Of a stretch of 43,579 nt of DNA, positions 143 through 43,579 are shown piece after piece (within the stretch, counting starts at the first letter, position 1; each line of letters begins with the position of its first letter). The stretch spans positions 1 to 43,579 of the forward strand of contig DASXQR010000057.1 in assembly GCA_036507075.1 (NCBI GenBank), read 5' to 3'. This DNA is from Acidobacteriota bacterium (GTDB taxonomy: Bacteria; Acidobacteriota; UBA6911; JACQSX01). The notes below the pieces were generated by a model. The model was not told the origin of the DNA, did no database searches, and saw only the letters and a list, made by a program, of their open reading frames with translations. The position numbers and the translations under genes were made by a program.

Positions 143-178
143 GGCAACGGACAACGGACAACGGACAACTAACAACGG
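143..178. repeat. Heptamer tandem repeat (CAACGGA)n, lone arm
   Basis: CAACGGA CAACGGA CAACGGA CAACTAA CAACGG. The same unit forms arms at 11543-11594 and 38076-38097. Confidence 0.85.
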
Positions 179-207
179 GCGACGATTGGATATGATACAA
201 ACATCCA

Positions 208-1881
208 ATGAAGCTTGTTTACGATGTGGCCGTTGTCGGGTCGGGCGCCACCGGCGGATGGGTTGCCAAGGAATTGGGCGAAGCCGGATTGAAAGTGGCT
301 GTCCTCGAGGCAGGGCCAAGGATTGATCCGTCGCGCTTTACCACCCATGTGCACCCTTATGAGATGCAACTGCGCGGGCGCCGCAGCAGTGACCTGCGCC
401 GGCGCAAGCCGATCCAAAGCCTCTGCTACGCCTGCACCGACTACAACGATTACTTCTTTGTCGATGACGCCGATCATCCGTACAGCACACCGAAAGATCA
501 GCCGTTCTGGTGGATCCGGTGCCGCGTGGTGGGAGGACGCTCCAATGTGTGGGGTCGCATGGTTTACCGCTACAGCGACCTGGATTTCAAGGCGGCCGGC
601 ATCGACGGTGCCGGCGAAAACTGGCCGATCGGCTACGCAGATCTGAAGCCCTACTACGATAAGGTCGAGGATTACATCGGCGTCAGTGGATCACCCGAAA
701 ACCTGCCGCATCTTCCCGACGGCGTGTTCCTTCCTCCCATGAATCTTACCTGCGGCGAGCAACTGCTGAAGAAAACAGTCGATCGCATGGGACGCCGGCT
801 TACTATCGGTCGCGTGGCGATGCTGACGCGCCCCCATCGCGGCCGTGCAGCTTGCCACTACTGCGGCACGTGCGAACGCGGGTGCGATTCGAATTCATTT
901 TACGCCAGCCCGCTGACCACTTTGGCGGATGCGCTAAACACCGGCAATGTAAAACTGATGACCGACTGTGTGGTCAGCCACATCACGCACGATGGCGCGG
1001 CAAGGGCGAGGAGCGTCTACTACGTAGACCGCCTGACGCGACAGCACCGCGAAGTGCCCGCCAGGGCGATTGTACTGTGCGCGTCGGCGATGGAATCGGC
1101 GCGCATTCTTTTGAACTCCAGGTCATCCAGTTTCCCCAATGGTCTCGGAAACTCCAGCGGCGTGCTGGGCCATTATCTGATGGACCATATCAAGCACGGC
1201 GGGGCCAGCGGTTATTTCCCGCAACTGTCAGGGCGGAAGCGCGAGCACAACGGAATCCGCAGAAGCGGGATTTTTATCCCGCGCTTTCGCAATTTGAAGA
1301 AAGTCGATTCACCTTTCATTCGCGGCTATGGCATGGAAGGGGAAAGCATGCAGGCGGAATTTGAACATGCTTATTCTGCGCCGGGATTCGGCGCCGGTTT
1401 CAAGAAACGCGTGCGGGATGACGTTCCCTGGACGGTCAGCCTTTACGGCTACGGCGAGTGTCTTCCTAGATACGAGAATCGAATGGAGCTGCGCGAGGAC
1501 CTGGTGGATGCCTGGGGCATTCCCAGCGTGCATATTGCAACGGCCTGGTCCGATAACGACATAAAGCTGGTGAACGATATGGGTGATTCCGCGGCGGAAA
1601 TGATCGAAGCCGCCGGCGGCGTGGTCAATCAGGTCATGAAGACGCCCGCCGTTTTCGGTTTTTCCAATCATCAGGTCGGGACGGCGCGCATGGGCAGGAA
1701 TCCAAAAACTTCATTTCTAAACTCCTTCTGCCAGTCACACGACGTAAAAAACCTTTTCATCATGGACGGCAGTTGCTTTACCAGCTCCGCCTGGGCCAAT
1801 CCCACTCTCACAATGATGGCCCTGGCCGTGCGCGCGTGCAAGTATTTGAAGGATCAATACCGGCAAGGGAATTTAGGATAG
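208..1881 (+). CDS. GMC-family FAD-dependent oxidoreductase (sugar/gluconate dehydrogenase flavoprotein-like)
   Basis: 557 aa. N-terminal GSGATGG FAD motif, VGGRSNVWG, Cys cluster CHYCGTCERGC, C-terminal HQVGTARMG and NPTLT. Confidence 0.92.
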   Translation: MKLVYDVAVVGSGATGGWVAKELGEAGLKVAVLEAGPRIDPSRFTTHVHPYEMQLRGRRSSDLRRRKPIQSLCYACTDYNDYFFVDDADHPYSTPKDQPFWWIRCRVVGGRSNVWGRMVYRYSDLDFKAAGIDGAGENWPIGYADLKPYYDKVEDYIGVSGSPENLPHLPDGVFLPPMNLTCGEQLLKKTVDRMGRRLTIGRVAMLTRPHRGRAACHYCGTCERGCDSNSFYASPLTTLADALNTGNVKLMTDCVVSHITHDGAARARSVYYVDRLTRQHREVPARAIVLCASAMESARILLNSRSSSFPNGLGNSSGVLGHYLMDHIKHGGASGYFPQLSGRKREHNGIRRSGIFIPRFRNLKKVDSPFIRGYGMEGESMQAEFEHAYSAPGFGAGFKKRVRDDVPWTVSLYGYGECLPRYENRMELREDLVDAWGIPSVHIATAWSDNDIKLVNDMGDSAAEMIEAAGGVVNQVMKTPAVFGFSNHQVGTARMGRNPKTSFLNSFCQSHDVKNLFIMDGSCFTSSAWANPTLTMMALAVRACKYLKDQYRQGNLG

Positions 1882-1885
1882 TGGT

Positions 1886-1953
1886 GTTAAGCTGGCTTGG
1901 TGTCTTGGTGGTGAAAAACGTTTTCAACCACAAAGGCACAAAGCCAGCTCAAC
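1886..1953. repeat. Palindromic element, CTTGGTGTCTTGGTGGT family, between convergent genes (possible bidirectional terminator)
   Basis: AGCTGGCTTGGTGTCTTGGTGGT...ACCACAAAGGCACAAAGCCAGCT. Related copies at 10291, 33680 and 43542. Confidence 0.8.
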
Positions 1954-1979
1954 TCTGTTGAGAGTGACGACTCCAGTCC

Positions 1980-4900
1980 CTAGAAAGCCAGCCTCAGCGC
2001 AAACTGCATCTGGCGCGGGACACTGCTGGTGTTGCGGATTTTGCCGAAGTCCGGGCTTTCAATGTTTATCACTGGGTTTTCTAGGGTCGGCGTATTGGTG
2101 ACGTTGAAAACCTCCCATCGGAACTGCAGGCTCACCTGTTCGCGGATGGGAAACGATTTCATTAGTCCGAGATCCAGGTTGAACGCCCCATCGCTGCTGA
2201 GAATTCCACGTCCCGCGTTCCCCAGGCGAAAGGAGCCGTCTGGATTCCTTGGAATCGCGAAAGCTGACGTGTCAAACCAGCGGTCCGCCGTCGGATGGGA
2301 AAGTTTTCCCTCCCGCAATCGATCCGGAAACCATTGGCCGACAGCGGTCGCTCCCAGGCGCTGCCGCGCGTTGGGCACGATCAAAGTGAAAAAATGACCT
2401 GACTGTGCCGAAAACAGTCCGGAAATCTCCCACCCGCCCAGCAACTGGTTGAGGATTCCACCCTGGTTCATCAACGCCCGGCCCCTTCCAAAGGGTAACT
2501 CGTAAGTGGCGGCGCTTACAAAGCGGTGCCGGTAGTCAAATTCGGAATTTCCGCGGCTCGCATCGATATTGTGGAAGTCCTGCAGTCCTCCTCCACCGGA
2601 GCCGAACTGCTCGGATACGTTGTCAAGAGAGTGGCCCCACGTGTACGCGCTCGAGAAAACCAGACCTTGAGAGTACCGGCGTTCCAGTTGCAAATCCAGG
2701 CCGTGATAGCTCGCATGGCCGAAGGGGCTGCGCAGTGTGATGTTGTTCCATTGCGGGATGGGCCGGCGCTGGCGTTCGGTGGCGGGCGGTCCCAATGGAG
2801 AACCGTTCCAATTATAGGCATCCATAATGAAGCTGGAAGACGATCCTACATAAGCCACCGTCAGCGAAAGATCGCGCATCAGCTCGCGCTGCACCGCCAG
2901 GTTCCACTGGTGAATGGTGGGTTCGGGAAAATCCGTTTGCCACACGCTCCAGTTCAGATTGTCGGGTGGCGTCGTCGTGCTCCCGAGAACGCCGGCCGGG
3001 AGCCCATCGGCCAGGCGCACGGCGGGACGCGTGGGCGTCGACTGCAGCGTCACACTTCGATTGAAAGGAAAGTTGTTGATCATCCGCGCGTCGGCTCCCA
3101 GCGAGCCCTGCCCGCCATAGAAGACTCCGTATCCGCTGCGTAAAACCGTGCGAGGGGCAATCTGATAAGCGAAACCGATTCGGGGAGCAAAGTTGTTTTT
3201 GTCGGTGTTGACAAGCGCCCGGCACGACCACGACCCGCCGCAGTGTGCCGCGGGCCGAATCGTGTTGAACTGGGATCCCGGCTCAATCACCAGCATATTC
3301 ATGCGATCGGTCTGCTCGTACCACGGGCTGGTCAGCTCGTAGCGCAGGCCCAGATTAAGTGTGAGTTTGGGCGTTAGTTTCCAGTCATCCATCGCGTAAA
3401 TCATGTAGTTCTGGAAGCGCATGTTGCCTCTCAGAATGCTGCTCAGAGCGGCCGACGCCGGCATTCCCAGCAGAAAATCAGCGAAGCTGACGCCGGTGAA
3501 TTGACCGTCGAACGTGAAATTTCCATGGGAGCTGTTGCCCCCGAAAATATCCGAGCGGTTCCATCGAAGATCCGTACCGACCTTGAAGTTATGCGAGCCG
3601 TGATTCCAGGAAACGTTGTCCAGGAATTGGCGAACCTCGTGGATCTTGAAGTTGGGCATTGATCCCGGCTCTCCAAGGCCCTGGTAACTGATAGCCCCGG
3701 CCAGGGCAAACTGGGGCAACCCGAACAGCTTTTCCCCGCCCGGAATCCCCTTGATTCCGTATTTGGCCGTTAATTCTGCCAGCGGCTCTTTGGACAACTC
3801 CCGTTTGTCGACCTTCTGGCGAACAAAGCCGAAGCGAAATTCGTTGACCAGACGGGGGGAGAAAATACGCGTGTAGGAAAGCACGGCGCTGGCGGCGTTG
3901 TTGTCGTCAAATGCACGGTCGTTGTTCTGGCCGCCGCGCGCGGGAGGTTCGAACACTGAATCGCGCAGATTGTCAAAACGGGAAAAGCTGACGCGGGCAA
4001 AGAGCTTGTTGCTGTCGGAAAGGTTGTGATCCACTCGCGTGTCAAGCTGGTCGCGGTCGGTAGTCCAGGGGGGATTGCGGATGAAGTTCGCGCGCGTTCC
4101 CGAGCCGGTGAAGTTCGGTAGAGGCCACAATTCCAGCATCCGTGCCGCCGTTGGATCGAAACGCTCCTTTGGAATCTTGTTGCCCTGGAACGGCTGTCCC
4201 GTTACCGGATCCCGGATGGTCCTGCTGAATTCGCCGTTGCGTTCCGCCGCGGTCGGGACCACCACCAGGTCCGATTGCTCGCGACGCTCGCGTCTGCCTT
4301 CCCAACTGACAAAGAAAAATGTCTTGTCCCGGACGATCGGACCTCCAAAAGTGGCCCCAAACTGGTTCTGGCGCAGCACCTCGGGGTCCGCCTTTCCGTC
4401 TCCATCGCGATCAACGTAATTAAAAGTATCGCGCGCGTCGAAGATATCGTTGCGTATGTACTCGTAAGCGGTCCCTGAGAATCGGTTGCCGCCCGACTTG
4501 ATGCTCACAATCATGACCGCGCCCGAATTGCGGCCGAATTCGGCAGAATAGTTGCTGGTTTGAAGAGTGAATTCGGAGACCGCGTCCAGCGAGGGAATCA
4601 CCACTTGCATCTTGCGATCCTGCATTCCCATGACGTTGTTGTTGTTGTCGATGCCGTCGATGATAAAGCTGTTCTGCGTCATCGGCTGGCCGTGCGCATT
4701 GAAACCGCTTTCCCGGTCGCGGCTGCGCGTGGCCGGCATTATTCCCGCGGCCTGCCAGGCCAGTTGCTGAAAGTTTCTGCCGTTCAACGGCAAGTCACGG
4801 ATTTGTTCCTGACCCACAACATGGGAAAGCGACGACGTCTCGGCCTGCAGCAGCGGCGCTTCTGCCGTCACTGTTGCAGTTTCCGCAAACTCACCGATGG

Positions 4901-5216: not shown

Positions 5217-5230
5217 GGCGTCTCCTCTAA

Positions 5231-5337
5231 GGGTTGCGGATTCCGGGTTGTGGGTTGCGGGTTACTTGTTCCGAGTTTGCGGGTTAGTGATCCCGAGTTG
5301 CGGGCTCCGGGTTCCGAGTTGCGGGTTACGGGTCGCG
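5231..5337. repeat. Degenerate heptamer array (GGGTTGC/CGGGTTG)n in the TonB-receptor leader
   Basis: Roughly 15 imperfect units abutting the RBS. The same unit occurs at 31419-31515 and 43503-43541. Confidence 0.85.
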
Positions 5338-5512: not shown

Positions 5513-5604
5513 AAATCGCAGGGGCGGCCTAACATGGGCGCCCGGTTCGCCGATTTGACCGGCGGCACCGACGCGGGCGGCCAGGTTAGGCCGCCCTACG
5601 ATTT
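5513..5604. repeat. GTAG-type REP doublet (REPIN-like)
   Basis: AAATCGCAGGGGCGGCCTAACATGGGCGCCCG (5513-5544) is inverted against CGGGCGGCCAGGTTAGGCCGCCCTACGATTT (5574-5604). The right arm read on the minus strand is GTAG plus the hairpin GGGCGGCC-TAACCT-GGCCGCCC. Confidence 0.75.
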
Positions 5605-5614
5605 GGAGGCCTGG

Positions 5615-8892: not shown

Positions 8893-8987
8893 CTGGTTAC
8901 CGACGAGCCTGGCCTATCATAAGCGCCCTTCCCCGGGTCGCTTGTGAGAGTGGTTACGTGGGGCGTTTTTCCTCGTGCGAAGAAATT

Positions 8988-9058
8988 GAACCGCGAAGAG
9001 CGCAAAGAGCGCGAAGAGACTTCTTATTCTTGGCGATTCTTGGCGTTCTTGGCGGTTC
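8988..9058. repeat. Palindromic element, AACCGCGAAG 9-nt-period family
   Basis: GAACCGCGAAGAGCGCAAAGAGCGCGAAG...CTTGGCGATTCTTGGCGTTCTTGGCGGTTC, just downstream of the stop of the 9070-10185 gene. Confidence 0.8.
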
Positions 9059-9069
9059 AGTCTTTTGGC

Positions 9070-10185: not shown

Positions 10186-10290
10186 GCGCCCCCTCCTTTT
10201 GTCGTCTTCGGTGCGCCTAATTCACGAAATTCTGCTTTCTTGCCAAAATTCCGTTCCACGCTGCCGTGATTGGCACACAGGTTAAAACCC

Positions 10291-10340
10291 TGGCTTTGTG
10301 TCTTGGTGGTTCAATATTTCTCACCACGAAGGCACCAAGC
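10291..10340. repeat. Palindromic element, CTTGGTGTCTTGGTGGT family
   Basis: GCTTTGTGTCTTGGTGGT...ACCACGAAGGCACCAAGC in the divergent intergenic region. Confidence 0.75.
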
Positions 10341-11378: not shown

Positions 11379-11381
11379 AGC

Positions 11382-11605
11382 CGGAATGCGGAATGCGGAA
11401 TGCGGAATTTCCGTTGTTCGTTGTCAGTTGTCAGTTGTCCGTTGTCCGTGGTCCTTGTCCGTGGTTGGTCCGTTGTCCGTGGTCAGTGGTTCAGTTCTCA
11501 TCAATGTTCGAACTGGAACACCAGACATTAAGATGGAACAAGGGACAACCGACGACGGACGACTGACAACGGACAACGGACCACTGACAACGGGCATTCC
11601 GCATT
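11382..11605. repeat. Two-layer nested heptamer palindrome: (GGAATGC)n[(TCCGTTG)n..(CAACGGA)n](GCATTCC)n
   Basis: Outer arms at 11382-11409 and 11595-11605, inner arms at about 11410-11495 and 11543-11594, with a unique core between them. Confidence 0.9.
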
Positions 11606-11623
11606 AGATTTAGATAAGGACCT

Positions 11624-15295: not shown

Positions 15296-15316
15296 GCGAA
15301 GCCGCGAAAAAACCTG

Positions 15317-15417
15317 AACCGCCAAGAACGCCAAGCACCTTTTCAACAAATAGGGGTCTGTCCCCCAATTAAAAAAAGGGGTCTGTCCCCATTTTGGCTC
15401 CTGTCCCCATTTTGGCT
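15317..15417. repeat. Half AACCGCCAAG element followed by tandem GGGGTCTGTCCCC mini-hairpins (REP-like)
   Basis: GAACCGCCAAGAACGCCAAG, then GGGGTCTGTCCCC at 15353-15365 and 15378-15390, and CTGTCCCCATTTTGGCT at 15383 and 15401. Confidence 0.7.
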
Positions 15418-15503
15418 GGTATTGTAGGCTAACGCACACGCCAGGGTCGAAAATTTGAAGCATAATAGGCCCCGACGGAAACGTCTTGCAACCGGAGAAC
15501 CCC

Positions 15504-16321: not shown

Positions 16322-16605
16322 GGGCAAGAATTCTTGCACCACAAAGGCTCAGCGCGGCCGTAGGCCGCAACCAAAAAGCCGTCCACGTTCACGAGCACGT
16401 GCACGTCAACGGCCACGTCTCAGGTCCGCGAACACGACAACATACAGACAGCCCCACAGTTCTGTGCAGTCTGTGACGAACCGAGCGTAGTCGTAAACGT
16501 AATCGTGGACGTTGACGTGCACGTGCTCGTAGACGGCTTTGAAAACTTTGCCAAAAAACCAAGAAGTTGCCAACTTGGGCCTTTGTGGTGCAAAAACTCT
16601 TGCTC
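16322..16605. repeat. Three-layer nested palindromic element between convergent genes
   Basis: Outer 30-bp IR at 16322-16351 and 16576-16605. Module GCGCGGCCGTAGGCCGCAACCAAA at 16352-16375. Inner hexamer-period (CACGNN) IR at about 16376-16418 and 16504-16539. Confidence 0.88.
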
Positions 16606-18044: not shown

Positions 18045-18146
18045 GGTGTTCCTCCTTATTTTTCGGCGAAACGCCTGCTACAGGTTTGGTTCAAGAAATC
18101 TTTTGGTTGGATTGTAGCGCCGACGTCAAGTCGAGGGAGGTCTGCT

Positions 18147-18369
18147 GTACCCGTAGCCGAACCGCGCGCGTAAGCAAGCGGACCCTCCGGGATTTGCCAC
18201 GAAGACACGGAGAATCGCTATTCATTTTGAAGTGACATTTCTCATAACTCGATCCAGCTTGTCGCAGAAGTTGCACTTCTAACTCAATCGTTATCCTTCG
18301 TGTCTTCGTGTCTTCGTGGCAAATCCCGGAAGGTCCGCTTGCTTACGCGCGCGGTTCGGCTACGGGTAC
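18147..18369. repeat. Composite 66-bp inverted repeat (REP-like outer layer, CACGAAGA inner layer), MITE-like
   Basis: 18147-18212 matches the reverse complement of 18304-18369 with 2 mismatches: GTACCCGTAGCCGAACCGCGCGCGTAAGCAAGCGGACC-TCCGGGATTTGCCACGAAGACACG. Confidence 0.9.
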
Positions 18370-18375
18370 CGCGGA

Positions 18376-18753
18376 CTAATTCCTCCGTCTGTAGCGAAGC
18401 GCCGCGTGCCATCCGGTTCGTGAAGATTGTCCCAGGTAAGGGGTAATCAGACCGTAGTCCAGGCCGTTGAATTCCATTTCCATCTGAAGGTCTTCCATGA
18501 AGCCGACCGTAAGCACCCCTCTTACGTCGTCGTCGCCATTTTCATAAAGCTGTTCAACTGCGGTGAAAACGGATGGCAGGTCCTCTGCATGTCCCTGCTT
18601 CAGTAACTCGACAAGATGATGCGCCAGTTCTCCCACATCCACATAGACCAATGCCGGATCGTAGTCTTCATCTGAAATCCATTCAGCCCATCTTTCCGCA
18701 AACGACGGACAGGCGCTTACCAGAAAACGCATCATTTCGGATTCATTGATCAT
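18376..18753 (-). CDS. Small acidic hypothetical protein (DUF7674-like)
   Basis: ACPSFAERW...YVDVGELAHHLV...FTAVEQLYENGDDDVRGVLTVGFMEDLQ pattern. Start uncertain (18753, 18768 or 18792). Confidence 0.7.
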   Translation of the reverse strand: MINESEMMRFLVSACPSFAERWAEWISDEDYDPALVYVDVGELAHHLVELLKQGHAEDLPSVFTAVEQLYENGDDDVRGVLTVGFMEDLQMEMEFNGLDYGLITPYLGQSSRTGWHAALRYRRRN

Positions 18754-18805
18754 TGAGGGCTTAATCATACTTAACTGGCCAAGAGGCAACATTGCGATTT
18801 TTTTT

Positions 18806-18900
18806 CGTCAGCGTGGGCGTGGTCGTCGACGTCTCTCGTCGACGTGCACGTGCAGGTGGCCGTCCTCGGCTTTTGGTTGCGGCCTGCGGTGGGGCTGTGC
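18806..18900. repeat. Hexamer-period arm plus TTTGGTTGCGGCCTGCGG module
   Basis: Closely matches 37970-38060 and is the reverse complement of the module at 16352-16418. Confidence 0.8.
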
Positions 18901-19104
18901 CTGGGCGGTCAATACAATGTGGTGGTCTTTGCAGACGGGTATTCGGGACAACGCGCTTACCTATTGGGTTTATCCCGGCTTGCGGTCGCGGTTTTTGGGA
19001 GTGGGTGCTAGAGTCTTGGTTTGGTGGCAAGGAGGGTGATTTACTTGCTGGAAAACCGGCTTCCCGAAGGCATGGCCCGGGACAGGAGATGCAACTAAAG
19101 CTTA

Positions 19105-19202
19105 AATGTGGATTTCGGAATGAGCAATGGAAGACTGGTTTGACTCAGGCTTGAAAAACTGACCGGCGAATATTCCGCATTCCGCATTCCCCATTCCGCA
19201 TT
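19105..19202. repeat. Heptamer palindrome (GGAATGC-like)..(CATTCCG)n downstream of the TPR gene
   Basis: AATGTGGATTTCGGAATGAGCAATGG...ATTCCGCATTCCGCATTCCCCATTCCGCATT. Confidence 0.75.
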
Positions 19203-19208
19203 CAGGTG

Positions 19209-20570: not shown

Positions 20571-20799
20571 CCGCGCGCGTAAGCCCGGATTATTCATAAA
20601 AAACTTGACCGCGAAGACCACCAAGAACGCCAAGAGAGCGGCAAGGACGGGGGCTGAAACTTGAAGCATGAAGGCCATCAACTCTTTCTTTAATCTGCGT
20701 CGTGTCTTCATGCTTCAAGTTTCAGCCCCCGTCCTTGCCGCGTTTCTTAGCGCTCTTGGCGGTTAAGTTTTTGTGAATAATCCTGGCTTACGCGCGCGG
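20571..20799. repeat. Three-layer nested inverted repeat in a divergent promoter region
   Basis: Outer CCGCGCGCGTAAGCC..GGCTTACGCGCGCGG, middle ACCGCGAAG/CGCCAAG 9-mer arms, inner perfect 36-bp IR at 20638-20673 and 20706-20741. Confidence 0.9.
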
Positions 20800-20852: not shown

Positions 20853-22010
20853 TTGCAAAGCAAGGTGCTGTCCTTATATATTGAGGGCGTGGAAAGACAG
20901 TTCCCACAGCCTGCCGGCGTCACGTCGAAAACAGCACAAACAGATAATTCGCCTGAAGAGGCGAATGCACGTGCGGGACAAGCCGCTTCTCTGGAGCAGG
21001 ATTATTCCCGGCTCATCACCGGCGCGGCATTGGCCGATTTTCCCAATCTCAGCATTCTGCAAGCTTATGGGCCCGATACCAGCAGCTTCCTGCAGGGGAT
21101 GGTTACCAACGACGTGGCAAAGCTGCAGCCTGGCGAGGGATGCCTGGCTGCGCTGCTGAACCCAATCGGTAAAGTTATCTCCGACCTTATCGCACTGAAG
21201 CTGCACGAGGAACGTTTCTGGATCATCATCAGGCAGGACCGGAGGGAGAAAGTCGATCAGTCGCTCAAAAGATTTATCGTTTCCGATGATGTGGAAACTG
21301 GCGCGCTTGAGGACTGGTCGGCGCTGGGCGTGCTGGGACCTCAGTCGCGGGAGCGTCTGGGCGCCGTTTTTCCCCGATTGCCCGAAAAATCGCTGGCCAG
21401 TCTTGAATTTCAGATCGATGGAGATGCGGTGCGCGTGCTGCGCCATTTGCGCCTCGGTATCGACGGTTATCACCTGTGGGTGCCTGCCGCCAGACATGAC
21501 CACTGGTCAGGCCTGATCAAAGCGAAGTGCGGCCTGGAATCCGTGCCGGATCGGGTTCTGGAAGTGATCCGCATCGAAGCGGGCGTCCCGGAATACGGAA
21601 TTGATTTTGACGAAAGCAATATCCCGCTGGAGAGTAATCTGGATGACTTGCTTGACTTTCAGAAAGGGTGTTACACCGGCCAGGAAATCGTGTCTCGTGT
21701 GACCTATTTGGGAAACGTGAGCAGGAAACTTGTCGGCTTGCTGGCTAATGATGTGCGGATTCCGGAAAAAGGCGAGGAGATTCGACTGGGAGATCAGGCC
21801 ATAGGACGCATTACCAGCGCTGCGTGGTCGCCGGCACTAAAGCAGCCGATCGCGCTTGGTTACGTTCAGAGAAAGTTTCTGGAGTATGGAAAAGAAGTGG
21901 AGCTCGCCTCGGGAATCAAGGCATCGATCAGTCAACTTCCGCTGGTGACAGTCGAAAGTCGAAGATCTAAAGTCGAAAGTCGAGGGAGGAATCAGAGCCG
22001 CGATCTTTGA
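20853..22010 (+). CDS. ygfZ: YgfZ/GcvT-family folate-binding protein
   Basis: FLQGMVTND, RIEAGVP, signature KGCYTGQE, GRITSA, IALGYV. The start is uncertain (GTG 20889 possible) and the C-terminal tail is repeat-derived. Confidence 0.88.
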   Translation: MQSKVLSLYIEGVERQFPQPAGVTSKTAQTDNSPEEANARAGQAASLEQDYSRLITGAALADFPNLSILQAYGPDTSSFLQGMVTNDVAKLQPGEGCLAALLNPIGKVISDLIALKLHEERFWIIIRQDRREKVDQSLKRFIVSDDVETGALEDWSALGVLGPQSRERLGAVFPRLPEKSLASLEFQIDGDAVRVLRHLRLGIDGYHLWVPAARHDHWSGLIKAKCGLESVPDRVLEVIRIEAGVPEYGIDFDESNIPLESNLDDLLDFQKGCYTGQEIVSRVTYLGNVSRKLVGLLANDVRIPEKGEEIRLGDQAIGRITSAAWSPALKQPIALGYVQRKFLEYGKEVELASGIKASISQLPLVTVESRRSKVESRGRNQSRDL

Positions 22011-22040
22011 CTTTTGACCTTTGACTTTTGACCTTTGACT
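21951..22040. repeat. Heptamer palindrome (GTCGAAA)n..(YTTTGAC)n overlapping the ygfZ 3' end
   Basis: Left arm 21951-21985, right arm 22005-22040. The ygfZ stop TGA (22008-22010) lies inside the right arm. Confidence 0.85.
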
Positions 22041-22089: not shown

Positions 22090-23349
22090 ATGGTAATTCA
22101 TCCATTTCGGGCGGTCCGCTTCAATCAAGACCGCGTCAAGCTTGCTGATGTCGTAACGCAGCCATACGACAAAATCGACACCGCCATGCAGGCTGTATAT
22201 TACAAGAAAAGTCCGTATAACATTGTGCGGGTGATCAAATCACGCGAAGTCGACGTGCGCGGCGATGAGGGCTATATCGCCGCCGGGCGTCTCTGGAGTC
22301 AGTGGATGAAGAGCGACCTCTTTGTGCACGAACATGACCCAGCGCTTTTCATCTACCGCCAGAGGTTCGCAATTGGCGAAAGGTCCTACCTTCGCCATGC
22401 GGTTGTGGGGTTGCTTGATTTAGGTCACGCCGATCGAGTTTTGGCCCACGAACGTACGCTCTCGGCTCCGCGCACCGACCGGCTGCGGTTGATTCGCCAA
22501 ACGGAAAGCAATGACGGCTTGATCTTCCTTCTTTACCGTGACCCCGCCCGTGTGATTCAAGGCATCGCCGATTCACTGGCCGGTTGTGAACCGTTGGAAG
22601 CAGTGACTGATGAGCACTTCACCGAACATGAGATCTTCCGCTGCCCGGCGGATCGCCAACAGGAACTCGCGTCGGTTTTCAATCAGGGTGAGATGGTGAT
22701 TGCCGACGGGCATCATCGATTTGCTGTGGCCTTGCAGTTCATGGAAGAGTGTCGGGCGAATGGCTGGAAACCTGCGGGGGTCGAGAGTTTCGACAAACGC
22801 ATGGTGGCCCTGGTGGAAATGACTGATCCCGGTCTGGTAATTCTCCCGGCGCACCGTGTTGTATTTGGTATTCCCGGTTTTCGCCGCGATTCCTGGGAGC
22901 AGAGAATGTCCGCCGGCTTTGAAAAAACAAGCGCCGAAGATCTGTCGGATCTGCTGAACAGGATGGCGCAATCCGGCCCCGGAAATTTTGGCGTGTTTGA
23001 CGGCAGGAGTTTCGCTCTCTGGAAGCGACGCCAGACGCCCGGTCCGGACGAGCTGGACGTCGCAATTCTGCATGAGGAGATTTTGGACAGCAAGCTGGGC
23101 ATCGGTGAAACTCAGGTTACTTCGGAGTCGAGGGTGCGCTATTTCAGAGACGCTGCTGCGGCCGTGCAGGAAGTGAGATCGGCAAACGGCCAACTTGCGT
23201 TCCTGCTGAACCCCACAAAGATTGAACAGGTTGAATCGTGCGCCCGCCGCCTGCAGGTTATGCCTCAGAAATCAACGGACTTTTTCCCCAAGATGCTCAC
23301 CGGGATGCTTTTCATGAAAATGGAAATCGATAAAGGGGAAAACCCGTGA
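22090..23349 (+). CDS. DUF1015 family protein
   Basis: IHPFRAVRF, VVTQPYDKI, AHERT, IADGHHR, ILPAHR, MPQKSTDFFPKMLTG. Start set at ATG 22090. Confidence 0.9.
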   Translation: MVIHPFRAVRFNQDRVKLADVVTQPYDKIDTAMQAVYYKKSPYNIVRVIKSREVDVRGDEGYIAAGRLWSQWMKSDLFVHEHDPALFIYRQRFAIGERSYLRHAVVGLLDLGHADRVLAHERTLSAPRTDRLRLIRQTESNDGLIFLLYRDPARVIQGIADSLAGCEPLEAVTDEHFTEHEIFRCPADRQQELASVFNQGEMVIADGHHRFAVALQFMEECRANGWKPAGVESFDKRMVALVEMTDPGLVILPAHRVVFGIPGFRRDSWEQRMSAGFEKTSAEDLSDLLNRMAQSGPGNFGVFDGRSFALWKRRQTPGPDELDVAILHEEILDSKLGIGETQVTSESRVRYFRDAAAAVQEVRSANGQLAFLLNPTKIEQVESCARRLQVMPQKSTDFFPKMLTGMLFMKMEIDKGENP

Positions 23350-23502
23350 ACCGCGAAAGCGCGAAAAGGAACCGCGAACGGGAAGATCGCCAAGAACCTC
23401 AATTGAACGCCGGCGTGAAAGATTTGGAGGGGAAAGGTCCGCGGTTCTGTTTAATTAATCGCTTCGCGTTCTTGGCGGTTCCTTTTCGCGCCTTCGCGGT
23501 TC
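23348..23502. repeat. Self-nested AACCGCGAA-family palindrome overlapping the DUF1015 stop
   Basis: GAACCGCGAAAGCGCGAAAAGGAACCGCGAA...TTGGCGGTTCCTTTTCGCGCCTTCGCGGTTC. Confidence 0.85.
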
Positions 23503-24732: not shown

Positions 24733-24741
24733 AGATTTGTC

Positions 24742-24805
24742 GGTGGTCAGTGGTCCGTTGTCAGTTGTCTGAGAAGGCGATCCGGATAATGAACCGACGG
24801 ACCAC
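24742..24805. repeat. Short heptamer palindrome (GTGGTCA/TCCGTTG family) inside the dehydrogenase operon
   Basis: GGTGGTCAGTGGTCCGTTGTCAGTTGTC...ACGGACCAC. Confidence 0.7.
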
Positions 24806-24826
24806 AAGTTTTGGCCGGGAGACAGC

Positions 24827-25801: not shown

Positions 25802-25815
25802 CCGCTCTCAAATTT

Positions 25816-28122: not shown

Positions 28123-28402
28123 ATGGGGGAGTGGGAGTGTGAGAGTGGGAGACAAGGAGCACGCGAAGCACAGAGCCGCGTCCCGCAAGGGCGTGGGGGG
28201 ACCAACTGAGCCGTCTCTCAACAGTACCGCGGTGCGTCAGCCCGCGGCGCGCGCATCGACCCAGGGTCAAGCGCCGCCCCAATCGATCAGATCACGGCGA
28301 TAGGCGCGCCGCGGGCTCACGCACCGCGGTACTGACCGGGAGCAGGCAGGTCGACTTGCGGGACGTGGCTCTATGCGTTGCGTGCTCCTTGTCCCCCACT
28401 CC
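28123..28402. repeat. Nested inverted-repeat element between E1-alpha-2 and lpdA
   Basis: Octamer-like GTGGGAGT run, outer ~47-bp IR at 28143-28189 and 28355-28401, inner 31-bp IR CAGTACCGCGGTGCGTCAGCCCGCGGCGCGC at 28222-28252 and 28304-28334 (1 mismatch). Confidence 0.88.
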
Positions 28403-28453
28403 GCATGGCAAAAGCCATAACTGGTACTAATGTGAATCCTTGGAGACTACCCG

Positions 28454-29868: not shown

Positions 29869-29936
29869 GTCTTTGAGTCTTTCAGTCTCTCAGTCTCTAA
29901 GGACTGAAAGGCTGAAAGACTGAGAGACTGAAAGAC
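29869..29936. repeat. Octamer palindrome (GTCTTTCA)n..(TGAAAGAC)n after lpdA
   Basis: GTCTTTGAGTCTTTCAGTCTCTCAGTCTC..GACTGAAAGGCTGAAAGACTGAGAGACTGAAAGAC. Confidence 0.85.
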
Positions 29937-29987
29937 TGTAAACCTTTCCGCCGCTTATGTATCTAAGACCCCAGCAAGGTAACGGAT

Positions 29988-31418: not shown

Positions 31419-31597
31419 GAGTTACGGGTTTCCGGGTTGCGGGTCGCGGGTCGCGGGTTTGCGGGTTGCGGGTTTTCGGGTTGTGGGTTGCGGGTTTTCG
31501 GGTTGCGGGTTACGAGTTTCTAATTTGGATCGCAAATTGAAAATTCCAAACCAACCGTAACCCGAAAACCCGAAAACCCGTAACGCGGCAACCGGTA
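31419..31597. repeat. Heptamer palindrome (GGGTTGC)n..(AACCCGA)n between the DUF1800 and DUF1501 genes
   Basis: The long left arm starts immediately after the TGA, followed by an AT-rich central hairpin and a shorter right arm at about 31553-31597. Confidence 0.88.
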
Positions 31598-32818: not shown

Positions 32819-33570
32819 ACCGACAAACGTTGTTTCCGGCCGCCCTTACGAGCGCGGTTCTGATTCTTTTGTGCCTTTTGACCGGCCGGGCCGCAGGCGG
32901 TGTTGGCGGCGAGGGCCGTTTCAGTTTGGAAGTATCGCCAGGCAGCGCGTCAGCACAGGAGGAGCGTTCCAGTCAGTCGCGCGCCGGATCACCCTCGACG
33001 GCGAACTCCGAACAAAAGAAGACCGAGACCGGACGGCCGATCTCTCCGGAAAGAGAGGAGATGCGACGTCGCTTCGCACTTCAGGTGTTCCGCGTGCTGG
33101 ACGCGAATCGGGATTCCGCCATTGATCTGCAGGAGTTTCATCAGATCGGCCCGAAACGGTTGTTCATGAGAATGGATGCCGATCAAAACGGCAAATTGAG
33201 CCACGCCGAATGGAGCGAGCCTGCCGGAGGCGCAGGCATGGCACTGCAGCAGTTGCGCCGATACCGCGCATTTTTTCTGGCAGACCGTGACGCCGATGGT
33301 CGTGTGGCGCGAAACGAATTTTTCCGTGGAGCGTTCGACGATTTTGACGAGGATCATGACGGTTATCTCTCGCTGAATGAATGGAAGTCCATGGAATCGG
33401 CCGAGCGCAATCGCCAGATTTCAGAGTTCATCCGAAAGAATGATCGCAATGGCGATGGAAAAGTGACCCGCAGTGAGTTCGAAGGCCGTGCTGAAGATTT
33501 TGACCGGATGGACACAGACATGGACGCCGAAGTGAGCTCCGCCGACATTGTGAAGGGGAGTGAAGGGTAA
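32815..33570 (+). CDS. Secreted multi-EF-hand protein
   Basis: Six EF-hand-like loops (DANRDSAIDLQE, DADQNGKLSHAE, DRDADGRVARNE, DEDHDGYLSLNE, DRNGDGKVTRSE, DTDMDAEVSSAD). Hydrophobic N-terminus. ATGA overlap with DUF1501. Confidence 0.88.
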   Translation: MNRQTLFPAALTSAVLILLCLLTGRAAGGVGGEGRFSLEVSPGSASAQEERSSQSRAGSPSTANSEQKKTETGRPISPEREEMRRRFALQVFRVLDANRDSAIDLQEFHQIGPKRLFMRMDADQNGKLSHAEWSEPAGGAGMALQQLRRYRAFFLADRDADGRVARNEFFRGAFDDFDEDHDGYLSLNEWKSMESAERNRQISEFIRKNDRNGDGKVTRSEFEGRAEDFDRMDTDMDAEVSSADIVKGSEG

Positions 33571-33866
33571 TGAAGGGTTATGAAGGGTGATGAAGGGTAA
33601 TGAAGGGTAATGAAGGGGAAGGAAGGGGGCGGGAGAAAAAAAGCGTTAGGCATTTTTGGGCAAGGCAACTCCCGATCCGTTAGCTTGGTGTCTTGGTGGT
33701 TCAATTCTTTTTTTTGACCACCAAGACACCAAGCTAATGACCTTGCTCTTCTTTTCTTTCCCACGCCCCTTCGTAACCCTTTCGCCCCCTTTATTCCCCT
33801 TCATTCCCCTTCATTCCCCTTCATAACCCTTCATAACCCTTCATAACCCTTCATTCCCTTTCGCAA
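33548..33866. repeat. Decamer palindrome (TGAAGGGTAA)n..(CCCTTCATAA/CCCTTCATTC)n enclosing a CTTGGTGTCTTGGTGGT element
   Basis: Seven units at 33551-33620, the reverse arm at about 33766-33866, and an inner IR at 33680-33737. Confidence 0.9.
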
Positions 33867-37868: not shown

Positions 37869-37877
37869 GGCGGACGG

Positions 37878-38143
37878 CGGAAGCGGAAAGCAGAAAGCGG
37901 AATGCGGAATGGGGAAGGGCTGAATGAAAAACTGCCTGTGGTCCGTTGTCAGTGGTCAGTTGATCGCGGTCGTGAGCGTGGGCGTGATCGTCGACGTCTC
38001 TGGTTGACGCGCACGTGACCGTCTTCGGCTTTTTGTTTGGTTGCGGCCTGCGGCCGGGCGGTGGAATATAAGGAACAACGGACCACGGATAACGGACTAG
38101 GGACAGTTTTTTTATTCCGCATTCCGCATTCCACAATCCGCAA
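37878..38143. repeat. Three-layer nested element inside the ABC exporter operon
   Basis: (GCGGAAT)n at 37878-37926 pairs with (ATTCCGC)n at 38114-38143. (TCCGTTG)n at 37938-37962 pairs with (CAACGGA)n at 38076-38097. The core is a hexamer arm plus the TTTGGTTGCGGCCTGCGGCC module. Confidence 0.9.
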
Positions 38144-38216
38144 TTGTGAATTGATTGCGTCAGGTTTTGTTGTTGCAAGCCGTGATTGTAGACTGAAAAA
38201 TCTTCTGGAGAAGACT

Positions 38217-38933
38217 ATGTCAGATGTGATTGTAAAAGTGCGGAATGTTTCCAAGCGATTCAAGCGCGACGAATTTGAAATCGTGGCTCTTGAGGATGTA
38301 AGTCTCGATATCAAGAGGGGGGACTTTCTCGCTTTGATGGGCCCTTCAGGCTCAGGCAAGTCGACTCTGTTGAATCTGATAGCCGGGATTGACCGGCCGA
38401 GCCAGGGCGAGGTTACCGTATTGGACACAAATGTCGGCGGGTTAACCGAAAGCCAACTCGCCTCCTGGCGCAATGCGCATATCGGTTACATTTTCCAGAC
38501 TTTCAACCTCATTCCGGTTTTGGATGCTTTTGAAAATGTCGAACTGCCTCTGCTTTTGACCCGTCTATCCAGGGAGCAGCGCCGCAAGAATGTTCAGACT
38601 GCTCTTGAATTGGTTGGCCTGGAAGATCGCATGCGCCACTTGCCGCGCCAGCTCTCGGGGGGGCAGGAGCAGAGAGTCGCCATTGCCAGGGCGATTGTTA
38701 TCGATCCGGACCTGGTTCTGGCTGACGAGCCGACAGGAAACCTGGATGCCAGGTCCGGTGAGGAAATTCTCAACATCCTGAGGTCTCTGAATGAGAAGCT
38801 GGGAAAGACAATCGTCATGGTAACTCACGATCCACACGCGGCCCAGTACGCCCGCAGCGAGATGCACCTGGAAAAGGGATTGCTGCTCAACGGCGAGACC
38901 CCGCTGCAGTCCGCGGGTAGCAAAAAAGCCTAA
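38217..38933 (+). CDS. ABC transporter ATP-binding protein (LolD/MacB type)
   Basis: Walker [35 protein letters not shown] 38217 has a GGAG RBS. The upstream ORF extension is repeat-derived. Confidence 0.96.
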
Positions 38934-39061
38934 CCGCGACGGCGCGAAAGCGCGAAGAGACTAAATTCATGCTGTAATAGACTTCAGGCGAAAGCACTGG
39001 CAGAACAGAATGCCAGCATCAGTGAAATGAATATCCTTCGCGCTTTCGCGCCTTCGCGGTT
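38932..39061. repeat. AACCGCGA-family palindrome overlapping the ATPase stop, between convergent genes
   Basis: AACCGCGACGGCGCGAAAGCGCGAAG...CTTCGCGCTTTCGCGCCTTCGCGGTT. Confidence 0.85.
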
Positions 39062-39072
39062 CAGTTCTAGTC

Positions 39073-39261
39073 TTAAAATGGCTGCTGTCCGCTTTGCAGG
39101 ATCTCTGCGCGTTGTTCAGGAGTGAGGGTGCCGGAGATCTCACGGCGGCGTAAATCAAAAATCGCGCGGCACCGAATACAGAACAATATCTTGTTCTTGC
39201 TCCAGCTTAATGTGGTGTTAGGTAGATATTCGCGAAGCAATTGTTTGCACTTGGGACACAT
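39073..39261 (-). CDS. Small putative zinc-binding protein (CxxC-x22-CxxC)
   Basis: 62 aa with CPKC...CIRC. Its start overlaps the upstream stop (TAATG). Confidence 0.6.
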   Translation of the reverse strand: MCPKCKQLLREYLPNTTLSWSKNKILFCIRCRAIFDLRRREISGTLTPEQRAEILQSGQQPF

Positions 39262-39620
39262 TACCGCTTCGCTTTTCGGCGCGCTGCCCAGTATTGTCGC
39301 ATCCGGGCGGCGCGGCGCCGGCGTTCGGCGGCGCTAAATTTGGGCTTCCTACGGCCCGCCGTCTTCGGTGTCGCCGCCCCTGCCTTTGCGGCTCGCCGGT
39401 CGGCCCAATACTGGCGCATTCGCTCTGCTCTGCGGCGCCTCTCAGCAGCGCTGAACTTCGATTTTCTTCTTCCACCGGTAGCAGAAGGAGGCTGCGCCGT
39501 CCGCCTGCTGCCGCCGCGCAGCTCGCTTTGAATCGCCACGATTTCAGTATTAATGCGGTCGCGCTCCGACTCCAACCCGCGCAATGCCAGCTCGAGCAAT
39601 CTCTGTCTGTCTGTAGCCAT
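39261..39620 (-). CDS. Small Arg-rich protein: N-terminal coiled coil plus two basic repeats (putative nucleic-acid binding)
   Basis: 119 aa. LLELALRGLESERDRINTEIVAIQSEL, then two copies of GRRK.KFSAAERRRRA.RMRQYWA.RR. GAGGGA RBS before ATG 39620. Confidence 0.8.
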   Translation of the reverse strand: MATDRQRLLELALRGLESERDRINTEIVAIQSELRGGSRRTAQPPSATGGRRKSKFSAAERRRRAERMRQYWADRRAAKAGAATPKTAGRRKPKFSAAERRRRAARMRQYWAARRKAKR

Positions 39621-39770
39621 TCTGTTGTCCCTCGATTGATTAGAAACGCGGCCAAGTATAACATTTACTAATAGAAAAGTTTCGCCGAAGCGTGCTGTCA
39701 AACTGGAAGCTGCGATACATTACTGGAATAATCGATTAGTCCCAGCAATTTTTTGTTAATTCAATATGTT

Positions 39771-40886: not shown

Positions 40887-41125
40887 TGGACGAGATCATT
40901 CGAGGTTCAGAAAAGTGCCACCAGTGTCAGGTGATCCTGCCGTTCGGGTTTCGCTGGAAGAACGGAGTTCAGCCGGTAGTCGACGATCAGGGGGACGATG
41001 TGATTCGAATGGAGGAAGGAGAAATCTTTCTGGACTGTCCGTCCTGCGGCGCGCAGAATTTCATGAAGCTCGAAAAGCAAGATGACAAAGTGGTGGGCCT
41101 GAGATTTGATCGTTTCGTCTGGTGA
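40886..41125 (+). CDS. Small putative zinc-ribbon protein
   Basis: 79 aa with CHQC...CPSCG. TAATG coupling to the aldo/keto reductase gene. Confidence 0.7.
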   Translation: MDEIIRGSEKCHQCQVILPFGFRWKNGVQPVVDDQGDDVIRMEEGEIFLDCPSCGAQNFMKLEKQDDKVVGLRFDRFVW

Positions 41126-41128
41126 GTG

Positions 41129-41255
41129 GAGCACGAATTTCCACGAATGACACGAATTTCACGAAGTTATTTGATTCCCGGCTATGGTTCGATAGAGATG
41201 GGAGAACTATTGTTAGCGGAAGATTCGTGAATTGTGTCCGGGAGAATTCGTGCTC
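41129..41255. repeat. CACGAAT 9-nt-period palindrome between convergent genes
   Basis: GAGCACGAATTTCCACGAATGACACGAATTTCACGAA...ATTCGTGAATT...GAATTCGTGCTC. Confidence 0.8.
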
Positions 41256-41262
41256 AACCAGC

Positions 41263-41544
41263 TTAGCGGAAAAGTTTGAGGTTCCGTTTTTCGTTGACGG
41301 CTTCTTCCATCTTTGTCCGGAGCCATCCATCAAGCGCTGATTTGAGAAATTTGTACCGGCCACCGATTTTTACAGCGGGAATATCTTTTTCTTTCAGGTA
41401 CCGATAGAAGGTCGGCAGCGCAATCTTCAGATAGCGGGCGGCATCTTTCGCACTCATGATTTCATCGCTGATTTCAACCGTCTCGCGGGTCCGCACTTTT
41501 GCCTGATCTCCTTTGGGTGGCCCTTCAACTGTATATTTTGACAC
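41263..41544 (-). CDS. Excisionase-family (HTH_17) DNA-binding protein
   Basis: IMSAKDAARYLKIALPTFYRYLKEKDIPAVKIGGRYKFLKSALDGWL. Confidence 0.88.
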   Translation of the reverse strand: MSKYTVEGPPKGDQAKVRTRETVEISDEIMSAKDAARYLKIALPTFYRYLKEKDIPAVKIGGRYKFLKSALDGWLRTKMEEAVNEKRNLKLFR

Positions 41545-41611
41545 GGTGTCAATTCAGCGTTCAATAAAAAGCGTAAAAAACTGTAAACGATAGAAGATCA
41601 ATAAGATGGCA

Positions 41612-41634
41612 GGCCCCGACCGTGATCGGGGCTC
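41612..41634 (-). terminator. Hairpin downstream of the Lys-rich microprotein (possible intrinsic terminator)
   Basis: On the minus strand, GAGCCCCGA-TCACGG-TCGGGGCC is followed by a T-rich tract that is not directly adjacent. Confidence 0.4.
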
Positions 41635-41650
41635 ATGTAAAACCGTGTTG

Positions 41651-41722
41651 TTACTTCTTTTTCTTGCTGGCTTTCTTTCCGCCGGCCTTTTTCTTGCCGC
41701 CGCCCTTTTTTTTGGTCGCCAT
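41651..41722 (-). CDS. 23-aa Lys/Gly-rich microprotein MATKKKGGGKKKAGGKKASKKKK
   Basis: Read manually and below the ORF-track cutoff. AAAGGAGG SD about 10 nt upstream of the ATG, TAA stop, downstream hairpin, mixed AAA/AAG Lys codons. Confidence 0.72.
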   Translation of the reverse strand: MATKKKGGGKKKAGGKKASKKKK

Positions 41723-42121
41723 GAACGCCGATCCTCCTTTCCCAGAAATTTTTCCCAACTGCCTTCATGTGGGAATGGGGTGATTTTGTACTCAGATTTA
41801 TAAAAATGCAAGCTTTTTTTGCTCTAATACCCCTTTATTACTGTGCGTTTTATCACAATTTTATCAATCTCAATGGAAGTCATTGAGCCTGAAGAGCTTG
41901 AGATTTCTACTGAAAGTCAAGTGATTTCTGGGTAAAAAAAGACGAGGAAACCCGCATCCAGCCTGATTTCCAGCGTTTCCTTAAGTGCCCGCGGCGATGA
42001 TGTTTCCTGGCTGGCCTTCCGTGCAGCACCTGATAAATATCGAGCCCGCTTGCACCCGTTCAAAGGGCCTACTAAACTTCATAAAAATTCACATTTGAAT
42101 CAACTTCGGCGCCGGGGGACT

Positions 42122-43489
42122 ATGGACTCAAAGATTGTCAAATTCATCGAACAGAACAAGAATCGTTACATTGAGGAGCTCAAGAGTTTTTTGAGGATTC
42201 CAAGCATAAGCACCGATCCCAATCATCGCAAGGATGTGCGCCAGTGCGCTGAGTTTGTAGTCGAGGAATTGAAAGATATCGGGTTTAAGGATGCCCACGT
42301 GTATGACACACCCGGACATCCGATTGTTTTCGCCCAGTGGCTGGAAGCTCCCGGCCAGCCCACGGTGTTGTTCTATGGACATTACGACGTTCAACCGGTT
42401 GATCCGCTTGATCTCTGGAAATCGCCGCCATTCGAGCCGGATATCAGGAACGGCGAAATCTATGCGCGCGGCTCAGCGGATGACAAAGGTCAGGTTTTCA
42501 TGCATTTCAAGAGTCTGGAGGCGCACCTGAAAAACACCGGGCGCCTGCCGGTAAACGTAAAACTGCTGATTGAGGGTGAAGAAGAGTGCGGCAGCGTCAA
42601 CCTGGACAATTTCATCGAAAAGCATCGCGAGATGCTCAAGGCGGATCTGGTGCTGATCTCGGATACGCCGATGTTCGCACGCGGCGTGCCGTCGATCTGT
42701 TACGGGTTGCGCGGGCTGGTTTACTTCCAGCTTGACCTGGTGGGGACTTCCACCGACCTTCACTCAGGAAGTTTCGGCGGCGCAGTGGCCAATCCCGCCT
42801 ACGTACTGTCAAAGCTGCTGGCTGAAATGAAGGATGAATCCGGCCACATTACTATTCCCGGTTTTTACGATGATGTCCGGCCGCTCACGGAACGAGAGCG
42901 GCGCGAGTACGCTTCGCTTCCGTTCGATCCAGACAAATTCCGCGCTGAGATCGGTGCCCCTCAGCTTTGGGGTGAAAAGGGCTTTTCTCCATTGGAACAG
43001 ATCTGGGCACGGCCCACTTTTGAAATCAACGGGCTGCTGGCCGGATTCACCGGTGAGGGAGCAAAGACAGTGATCCCGGCTCGCGCCATGGCTAAAGTCA
43101 GCATGCGGCTTGTGCCCGATCAGGACCCGGAAAAGATCGCCAAGCTGTTTGAGAACCATGTTACGAAGGTTTGTCCCAAGACCGTCGAGTTAAAGATTAC
43201 GCGCATGCACGGCGGGAAGGCATGGTTGGCGCCGATCGATCACCCGGCGATGCAGGCGGCAAGCCGGGCGTATGAAAAGGGTTTCGGAAAAAAGCCGGTC
43301 TTTGTGCGTGAAGGCGGCTCCATTCCAGTAGTGGCGACATTTGCGGAATTGCTCAAGGTTCCCAGCGTGCTGATTGGAATCGGACTGCCTGACGAAAATG
43401 CCCATGCGCCCAATGAGAAGCTGGATCTCGGAAATTTTCAGGGCGGAATTCTAAGCACCGCACATCTTTACCAGGAACTCGCCAAATAG
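42122..43489 (+). CDS. M20-family dipeptidase (cytosolic non-specific/DUG1-like)
   Basis: YGHYDVQP, ARGSADDKGQ, EGEEE, DLHSG, REGGSIP, HAPNE. Start at ATG 42122 after GGGGA. Confidence 0.94.
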   Translation: MDSKIVKFIEQNKNRYIEELKSFLRIPSISTDPNHRKDVRQCAEFVVEELKDIGFKDAHVYDTPGHPIVFAQWLEAPGQPTVLFYGHYDVQPVDPLDLWKSPPFEPDIRNGEIYARGSADDKGQVFMHFKSLEAHLKNTGRLPVNVKLLIEGEEECGSVNLDNFIEKHREMLKADLVLISDTPMFARGVPSICYGLRGLVYFQLDLVGTSTDLHSGSFGGAVANPAYVLSKLLAEMKDESGHITIPGFYDDVRPLTERERREYASLPFDPDKFRAEIGAPQLWGEKGFSPLEQIWARPTFEINGLLAGFTGEGAKTVIPARAMAKVSMRLVPDQDPEKIAKLFENHVTKVCPKTVELKITRMHGGKAWLAPIDHPAMQAASRAYEKGFGKKPVFVREGGSIPVVATFAELLKVPSVLIGIGLPDENAHAPNEKLDLGNFQGGILSTAHLYQELAK

Positions 43490-43502
43490 GGCGCCAGCCT
43501 GG

Positions 43503-43579
43503 GTGGTTGCGGGTTTTTGGGTTCCGGGTTGCGGGTTCCGAGTTGAGCTGGCTTGGTGTTTTGGTGGTCCAAAAAGAAT
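43503..43579. repeat. Left half of a nested element: (GGGTTGC)n followed by GTTGAGCTGGCTTGGTGTTTTGGTGGT (cut by the window edge)
   Basis: Same units as 5231/31419 and 1886-1953. Confidence 0.8.

Follow-up and report, generated by a model that had tools for sequence, protein, structure and literature searches.

What has produced the palindromic repeats that occupy so many intergenic gaps of contig C57 from an Acidobacteriota genome (assembly GCA_036507075.1), and to which proteins do they belong? The whole contig of 43,579 nt, called the window here, is part of a 6.1-Mb assembly with a completeness of 95.7% (genome G000), and it was compared with relatives of the same family (G001-G004, of which G001 and G003 share about 70% DNA identity with the window) and with a closer metagenome contig (L362, 76-82% identity). 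The elements consist of inverted arms made of tandem runs of short words, or of REP-like stems. We interpret them as gene-less relatives of small cassettes in which inverted arms surround a four-helix-bundle, GxxExxY or RAYT gene, and found that the intact cassettes share a predicted promoter with DNA-uptake genes.

The window's multi-family palindromic repeat system was real. Ungapped stems with a score of at least 12 were found in 14 of the 25 intergenic gaps of at least 40 nt (gene bounds were taken by eye from the list of open reading frames, ORFs), against a mean of 0.3 gaps after dinucleotide shuffling (20 shuffles per gap) and none of 72 length-matched coding pieces, and the DNA fold of the element at 11379-11612 had a z of -8.1, which 0 of 200 shuffles reached. 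Counting about 10 more weak or one-armed sites, the figure of about 20 intergenic sites proposed in a sequence-only reading of this DNA was fair, and the enrichment of arms over shuffled sequence, for which it had asked, was evident. All seven sites where it had described families nested in each other (11382, 16322, 18147, 20571, 28123, 33548 and 37878) carried the words it gave, but the one at 16322 looked like a single composite family with CACAAAGG and CACGTG arms and not like two independent insertions. Over the whole genome there were 1440 hairpin loci with a score of at least 16, 53 of them within long ORFs. In 16 word families, set by our own patterns, 643 arm pairs had one polarity and 57 the other, 47 of the reversed pairs coming from one pattern that likely mixes sub-families; the same scan detected 26 nested pairs and no crossed pair.

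A profile search of the genome's contigs with PF05635, PF13366 and PF01797 gave no match on the window, as expected from the earlier statement that it holds no mobiliser gene. The seven four-helix-bundle (TIGR02436) loci, six GxxExxY loci and 12 Y1 hits of the genome all lay on other contigs, where most of the window's arm families flank one of these genes, corroborating the link between arms and protein families that had been put forward in the sequence-only reading. Arrays of 6-, 7- and 8-mers flanked four-helix-bundle genes, CACxAAG, CGCxAAG and CACGAAT words flanked GxxExxY genes, and REP-like stems flanked most Y1 (RAYT) loci; the partners of the tandem-array families were TIGR02436 and TIGR04256 genes, not RAYT. 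CCGTTGT-like words were present on both flanks in 56 of 80 close homologues of the four-helix-bundle protein from contig C88, which came from Acidobacteria, planctomycetes, Verrucomicrobia, Bacteroidota and other groups, and repeat words tracked clades in two trees (47 and 26 rows picked from the loci fetched; support was weak at many forks).

The CACGTG family formed a deletion series, from a full cassette (C37) to a promoter with about 17 last codons (C167) and to a promoter with about four codons (C185, C192 and position 18806 of the window). These are internal-deletion derivatives of a gene-bearing element, as in miniature inverted-repeat transposable elements, and were seen in this family only. 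In the window, the left arm of the family (18807..18910, minus strand, without a right arm) bears a predicted competence-type promoter (TCGCA ... GTTAAGT, 27.9 bits; 18765..18806, minus strand), and the adjoining DUF7674 ORF (18376..18768, minus strand) starts with a stretch that aligns as the final codons of a four-helix-bundle gene, the rest of which has been deleted. DUF7674 was considered as a recurring cassette gene and was not found as such in five relatives (G001-G005). Of the proposal that the window's elements are non-autonomous mobile families or scars of cassette gain and loss, the origin of gene-less copies by internal deletion gained support in the CACGTG series, and mobilisation by a protein is conjectural. 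Coding remnants were detected in the loops of 15 of the 1440 hairpin loci, against 4 in reversed controls, and were mostly known cassettes; promoter remnants of at least 8 bits were present in just 23, indicating that most gene-less copies have no promoter.

The promoter-like motif, TTCGCA-N17-GTTATGT, was found at 21 of the 25 four-helix-bundle, GxxExxY and Y1 loci of the genome, and the four loci without it were truncated, broken or at a contig edge. Its simpler form, TTCG[CT]-N18-GTT, was matched by 18 of 19 inspected cassette genes in a search of the 250 nt upstream of the domain, and the 19th scored 46.7 in the next scan. When a matrix was seeded only on the 18 cassette sites, 62 hits of at least 22 bits were obtained, against none in the reversed genome, and the refined matrix gave 59 sites of at least 25 bits with a single fixed spacing. 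By our reading these sites preceded 13 uptake or recombination genes, 22 cassette genes, 11 remnants and 13 other or unknown genes, 33 of the 59 being within repeat cassettes or their remnants. The host genes headed by the motif were comEA, comEC, comF, comM, dprA, radC, recA, ssb, recG, recQ, uvrD, a pilin operon and an ERCC4 nuclease gene. The cassette matches are partly so by construction; independent testing comes from the host genes and from the relatives. Of the cassettes in G001-G004, 12 of 14 had the motif, as did 6 of 6 comM or dprA genes, against 0 of 129 control upstream regions. It was also found at four RAYT genes in G001-G004 and at one in G023, and not at IS200-like TnpA genes. 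Thirteen of the 59 sites had an ATG at position +12 counted from the GTT, which fits leaderless starts. The motif occurred on at least six separate branches in each of the two trees, and 8 of 17 cassettes were oriented against the upstream gene. The shape of the motif suggests an alternative-sigma promoter of the extracytoplasmic function (ECF) type. One motif ahead of both uptake and recombination genes, conserved in relatives, is a feature of competence regulons and marks out a likely one for this group. The sequence-only reading had overlooked this predicted promoter common to cassette and DNA-uptake genes, one copy of which lies in the window, at 18765-18806.

A locus near coaD with an XRE gene, an ECF sigma factor gene and a zinc-finger/TPR anti-sigma factor gene (L029, G000:C17:69372-75300; also L358 and L359) is only a candidate for the regulator. 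The motif was present on the opposite strand upstream of its XRE gene in G000, G001 and G002, and a copy at the 3' end of the C17 ECF gene was not kept in G001 or G002. Two further motif-bearing loci may be mentioned. L008 (G000:C28:1-2806) contains a pair of paralogous small ORFs that belong to no Pfam family, together with an ERCC4-HhH nuclease gene, and each of the three had the motif; in L031 (G000:C146:65461-67363) a reverse-transcriptase ORF stood back to back with a motif site heading a Peptidase_M78-like ORF. A route through reverse transcription was rejected: there were two reverse-transcriptase hits, and the motif beside one of them points away from the ORF.

Because the intact cassettes and the DNA-uptake genes have a predicted promoter in common, competent cells likely make the cassette proteins, and the repeats likely act or spread during the uptake of single-stranded DNA. 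We propose, giving the idea an even chance, that cells in competence make the cassette proteins, which would then target their own hairpins on the single-stranded DNA being taken up and thus seed new copies. An alternative-sigma promoter at the motif would drive the cassette genes together with the uptake genes; each protein would read its own repeat word and bind or cut its own hairpins, with the incoming strand as substrate; and cutting followed by repair would seed copies at stop codons and in the loops of older elements. The four-helix-bundle protein, for which we know of no catalytic activity, would be the binding partner of a host or cassette enzyme. A bolder version, possible but doubtful in our opinion, would make the GxxExxY and four-helix-bundle proteins two unrecognised classes of word-specific factors for single-stranded-DNA hairpins. 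Together with RAYT, they would be a set of transformation-stage elements that make copies of themselves from incoming DNA and need no classical transposase. These elements would have converged on the competence promoter of the host and would spread it to positions before passengers such as the DUF7674 ORF of the window.

If correct, the proposal says when, and on what substrate, two widespread families of orphan proteins would act, and likewise RAYT, the maintenance of which is an open question. It pairs each protein with a predicted recognition word, so that it can be tested with short oligonucleotides, and proteins that cut single-stranded DNA by sequence would add a second fold beside Ssn. 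Mobile elements have been described as blocking competence (review PMC12378983; this and the other papers are cited from extracts), and those described here possibly exploit it. No paper tying GxxExxY or four-helix-bundle cassettes to competence was found, although supplements, which were not covered, may list such genes; the extracts of PMC3686654, PMC3479197, PMC5524665 and PMC3330819 held nothing on such a link.

Several results weigh against the proposal. Thirteen of the 59 motif sites were ahead of unrelated or unknown genes, and no gene-bearing copy of GGAATGC (the most abundant word, 136 pairs), of the 10-mer or of GTCTTTCA was seen among the loci inspected. The idea that families insert into the loops of existing hairpins fared unevenly: inner elements tended towards a central position in the outer loop (relative asymmetry 0.28 vs 0.5, n=29), but by a measure bounded by alignment scoring the inner element was more intact in 14 and the outer in 16 of 31 pairs (p=0.59), giving no age order. 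By analogy with SsnA, cutting may lower integration instead of spreading the repeat. Outside the family the motif drifts: it was carried by 0 of 80 homologues of other lineages, 3 of 37 cassettes and 11 of 47 comM or dprA regions reached 8 bits with the G000 matrix, and 4 of 36 cassettes aligned on the comM/dprA promoter variant of their own host (G013, G024, G025 and G026); two further low-p alignments of this kind were spurious. Forty-seven of 71 other-lineage homologues, with the same arms, directly followed a gene on the same strand, from which they may be transcribed by read-through. By eye, comM and dprA had no such motif upstream in 29 distant genomes. A class-wide matrix built from comM and dprA was noisy, scoring 13 of 129 controls at 8 bits (target genes removed from the controls) vs 0 for the G000 matrix, and for this reason the latter was relied on. 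Since none of the 80 other-lineage homologues has the motif, the promoter link is lineage-limited; we regard the cassette design as widespread and the predicted competence wiring as a repeated, lineage-limited gain.

Among the other explanations, the best surviving one, unlikely as we judge it, is a domesticated transformation filter, in which the proteins would cleave or protect incoming DNA at repeats of the host, in the manner of SsnA at NTS, tuning which self or kin DNA recombines, with repeat spread as a by-product. That the same host promoter was gained repeatedly, in many parts of the trees, and that few gene copies face 1440 hairpin loci would fit it, as would the lowered integration of NTS-bearing DNA caused by SsnA (PMC11893778) and the 'bait' idea advanced for RAYT (PMC5581495). 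However, several cassette genes were broken or mere remnants and the families turned over between genera at the same sites, so that selfish elements fit better than a conserved host function.

That the elements act as RNA, like the intervening sequences (IVS) of 23S rRNA, appears improbable. Their stems would be cut by RNase III, as happens in the excision of IVS (PMC4990558), or would stabilise or terminate transcripts, and the proteins would bind RNA like Avd. The four-helix-bundle proteins did match TIGR02436 and PDB 2gsc (a match to Avd was weak and below the cut-off), and 52% of the elements in tandem gaps began at most 20 nt from a stop codon, against 28% ending at most 20 nt from a start. 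However, stem mismatches showed no bias to G-U over A-C on the mRNA strand (842 vs 856) and strand consistency within elements was not above chance (0.671 vs 0.663), so that nothing points to selection on an RNA stem; moreover, divergent gaps were filled as often as tandem ones (26% of each, and 37% of convergent gaps, with a crude gene model), and the promoter would be left unexplained. Least probable is a DNA-damage or replication-stress promoter, with elements moving on single-stranded DNA at stalled forks as IS200/IS605 do, because, although the motif is found at recA, ssb, recG, recQ and uvrD and HUH enzymes work on single-stranded DNA (PMC6006769), it also heads comEA, comEC, comF, comM, dprA, radC and the pilin operon, the gene set of known competence regulons (PMC1635313), none of lexA, uvrA/B, recN, ruvA and dinB was among the ORFs scanned for it, and seven Y1 hits in relatives that by eye resemble canonical IS200 TnpA are without it.

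The closest precedents for competence-stage cassettes would be REP/RAYT and the NTS/SsnA system of Neisseria. As in REP/REPIN (BIME) systems with RAYT/TnpA-REP (PMC5581495, PMC6006769, bioRxiv 10.1101/2021.07.10.451892), a gene has its own hairpin family on both sides, many other copies are without the gene, and a genome holds several families; the Y1 loci elsewhere in this genome have the HUH Y1 gene within its own hairpin family. In contrast, most arms here are tandem 6-10-mer arrays with four-helix-bundle or GxxExxY partners instead of HUH proteins, and all three gene types share one motif. E. coli yafM is reported to be up in competence-induced cells (PMC5581495, citing Sinha 2009). In Neisseria, a small gene is likewise enclosed by hairpin repeats, further copies of which are dispersed over intergenic DNA, and SsnA cuts NTS hairpins and acts on single-stranded DNA during transformation, competence being treated there as constitutive (PMC11893778). 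SsnA is a GIY-YIG protein, whereas no single-domain GIY-YIG gene between repeats was found here. The sole small GIY-YIG gene, tRNA-linked and without the motif, was rejected as an Ssn-type partner; it has a tRNA-like gene on one side and, on the other, an incomplete repeat of the 3' end of that gene (L364, G000:C5). That cassettes alter the integration of repeat-bearing transforming DNA is suggested by the shared motif only.

The 23S rRNA IVS resemble the cassettes in having an S23p/four-helix-bundle gene (PF05635/TIGR02436, PDB 2gsc) inside inverted arms (PMC4990558), but the cassettes here lie among protein-coding genes and in both orientations, and they have a promoter-like motif of their own as well as numerous copies without the gene. 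No location in 23S rRNA was apparent, as the flanks read as protein genes and no Rfam family was above threshold in the window. Geobacter metallireducens also has paired tandem hepta- and octanucleotides on opposite strands in intergenic regions, interpreted there as regulator binding sites, with no partner gene named in the extract (PMC2700814). The heptamer arrays may also resemble the STRR heptamers of cyanobacteria. The predicted regulon overlaps in com genes, dprA, radC, ssb, comM and pilin with the CRP-S/Sxy regulon (PMC1635313), and likewise with ComX/SigH regulons, but its motif is two-part and non-palindromic and most of its sites belong to repeat cassettes or remnants. The tandem-array families do not qualify as members of the RAYT, Ssn or IVS systems, but may work like them.

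Comparison of orthologous gaps showed them empty or differently filled in L362, G001, G003, G004 and G005, the presence/absence variation anticipated in the sequence-only reading, and G001 and G003 had other repeat words in the same gaps as the window. Between DUF1800 and DUF1501, the window has a GGGTTGC element (31419..31593), G001 has GCAGGTC, G003 has CCGTTGT around CAGCTAT, and the gap holds no element in four more distant genomes. The gap between lpdA and DUF1800 contained a complete GxxExxY cassette in G001 and G003. At 29869..29938 the window has a GTCTTTCA element where the same gap in G001 and G003 has a GxxExxY gene with the promoter motif. A CGCGAAG element extends from the DUF1015 stop onward (23348..23502) in a gap that is empty in L362 and G004 and carries a CCAGTTG family in G001 and G003, and a CCGTTGT element separates the genes for E1 alpha and E1 beta (24737..24810), at a site that is empty in L362, G004 and G005. 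L362 was empty at 23350 and 24733 and had half an element at 25802, where the window is empty. No target-site duplication was detected at the two filled/empty sites relative to L362, at an identity (76-82%) too diverged to exclude one.

The hairpin-cutting nuclease gene sbcD was not found in 13 of 31 genomes (G000-G007, G009, G015, G017, G021 and G023), including all five of this family, most matches elsewhere being below the cut-off. Those 13 genomes had 87 cassette-gene matches, vs 27 in the other 18, the kin among them not being independent. Some cassettes adjoined competence genes (L136 in G016, L302 in G036, L094 in G003 and L092 in G001): by eye, a comEA-like gene was followed by a GxxExxY gene, a four-helix-bundle gene directly preceded dprA, and GxxExxY fragments came directly after dprA.

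The remaining elements of the window are mostly hairpins of the same word families. Near the contig start there is a lone right arm of the CCGTTGT family (145..178), followed by a CACCAAG/CACAAAG hairpin (1886..1953), the word of which is also found beside GxxExxY genes, a lone left-type GGGTTGC array (5231..5337, plus strand), a REP-like hairpin (5513..5604), a CGCGAAG/CGCCAAG hairpin with a GxxExxY-type word (8987..9059) and a weak CACCAAG pair under the stem cut-off (10284..10340). The nested element at 11382..11605 has GGAATGC outside and CCGTTGT inside. Half a CGCCAAG arm at 15313..15420 is accompanied by GGGGTCTGTCCCC palindromes resembling those around the RAYT gene on C163, and the CACAAAGG and CACGTG composite (16324..16603) has diverged where other copies have the promoter. 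REP-like CCGCGCGCGTAAGC arms (74 nt, 95%) surround a CACGAAGAC pair at 18140..18376, and a GGAATGC element with a decayed left arm lies at 19097..19204. A triple nest at 20571..20799 has CCGCGCGCGTAAGC around CGCGAAG around a perfect 36-nt stem. The GTCGAAA element at 21950..22040 overlaps the 3' end of the GCV_T gene and is absent in G001-G004, nested REP-like stems of 47 and 37 nt are set within a GGGAGT run (28123..28404), and TGAAGGGTAA 10-mer arms with the upstream stop codon inside one arm surround a perfect CACCAAG hairpin (33548..33866). The arms at 21950-22010 and 33548-33570 have been absorbed into the 3' ends of two genes and provide their stop codons. Further on there are a GGAATGC element enclosing CCGTTGT and half a CACGTG element (37877..38142), a CGCGAAG hairpin from the stop of an ABC ATPase gene onward (38932..39061), a weak CACGAAT pair (41131..41235), and left arms of GGGTTGC and CACCAAG that are truncated where the contig stops (43505..43579, plus strand). 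Finally, a 25-nt sequence present in two tandem copies at 88-137 is likely the end of an insertion sequence, as it had 26 matches genome-wide and bounded a 1.6-kb stretch of C80 in inverted orientation.

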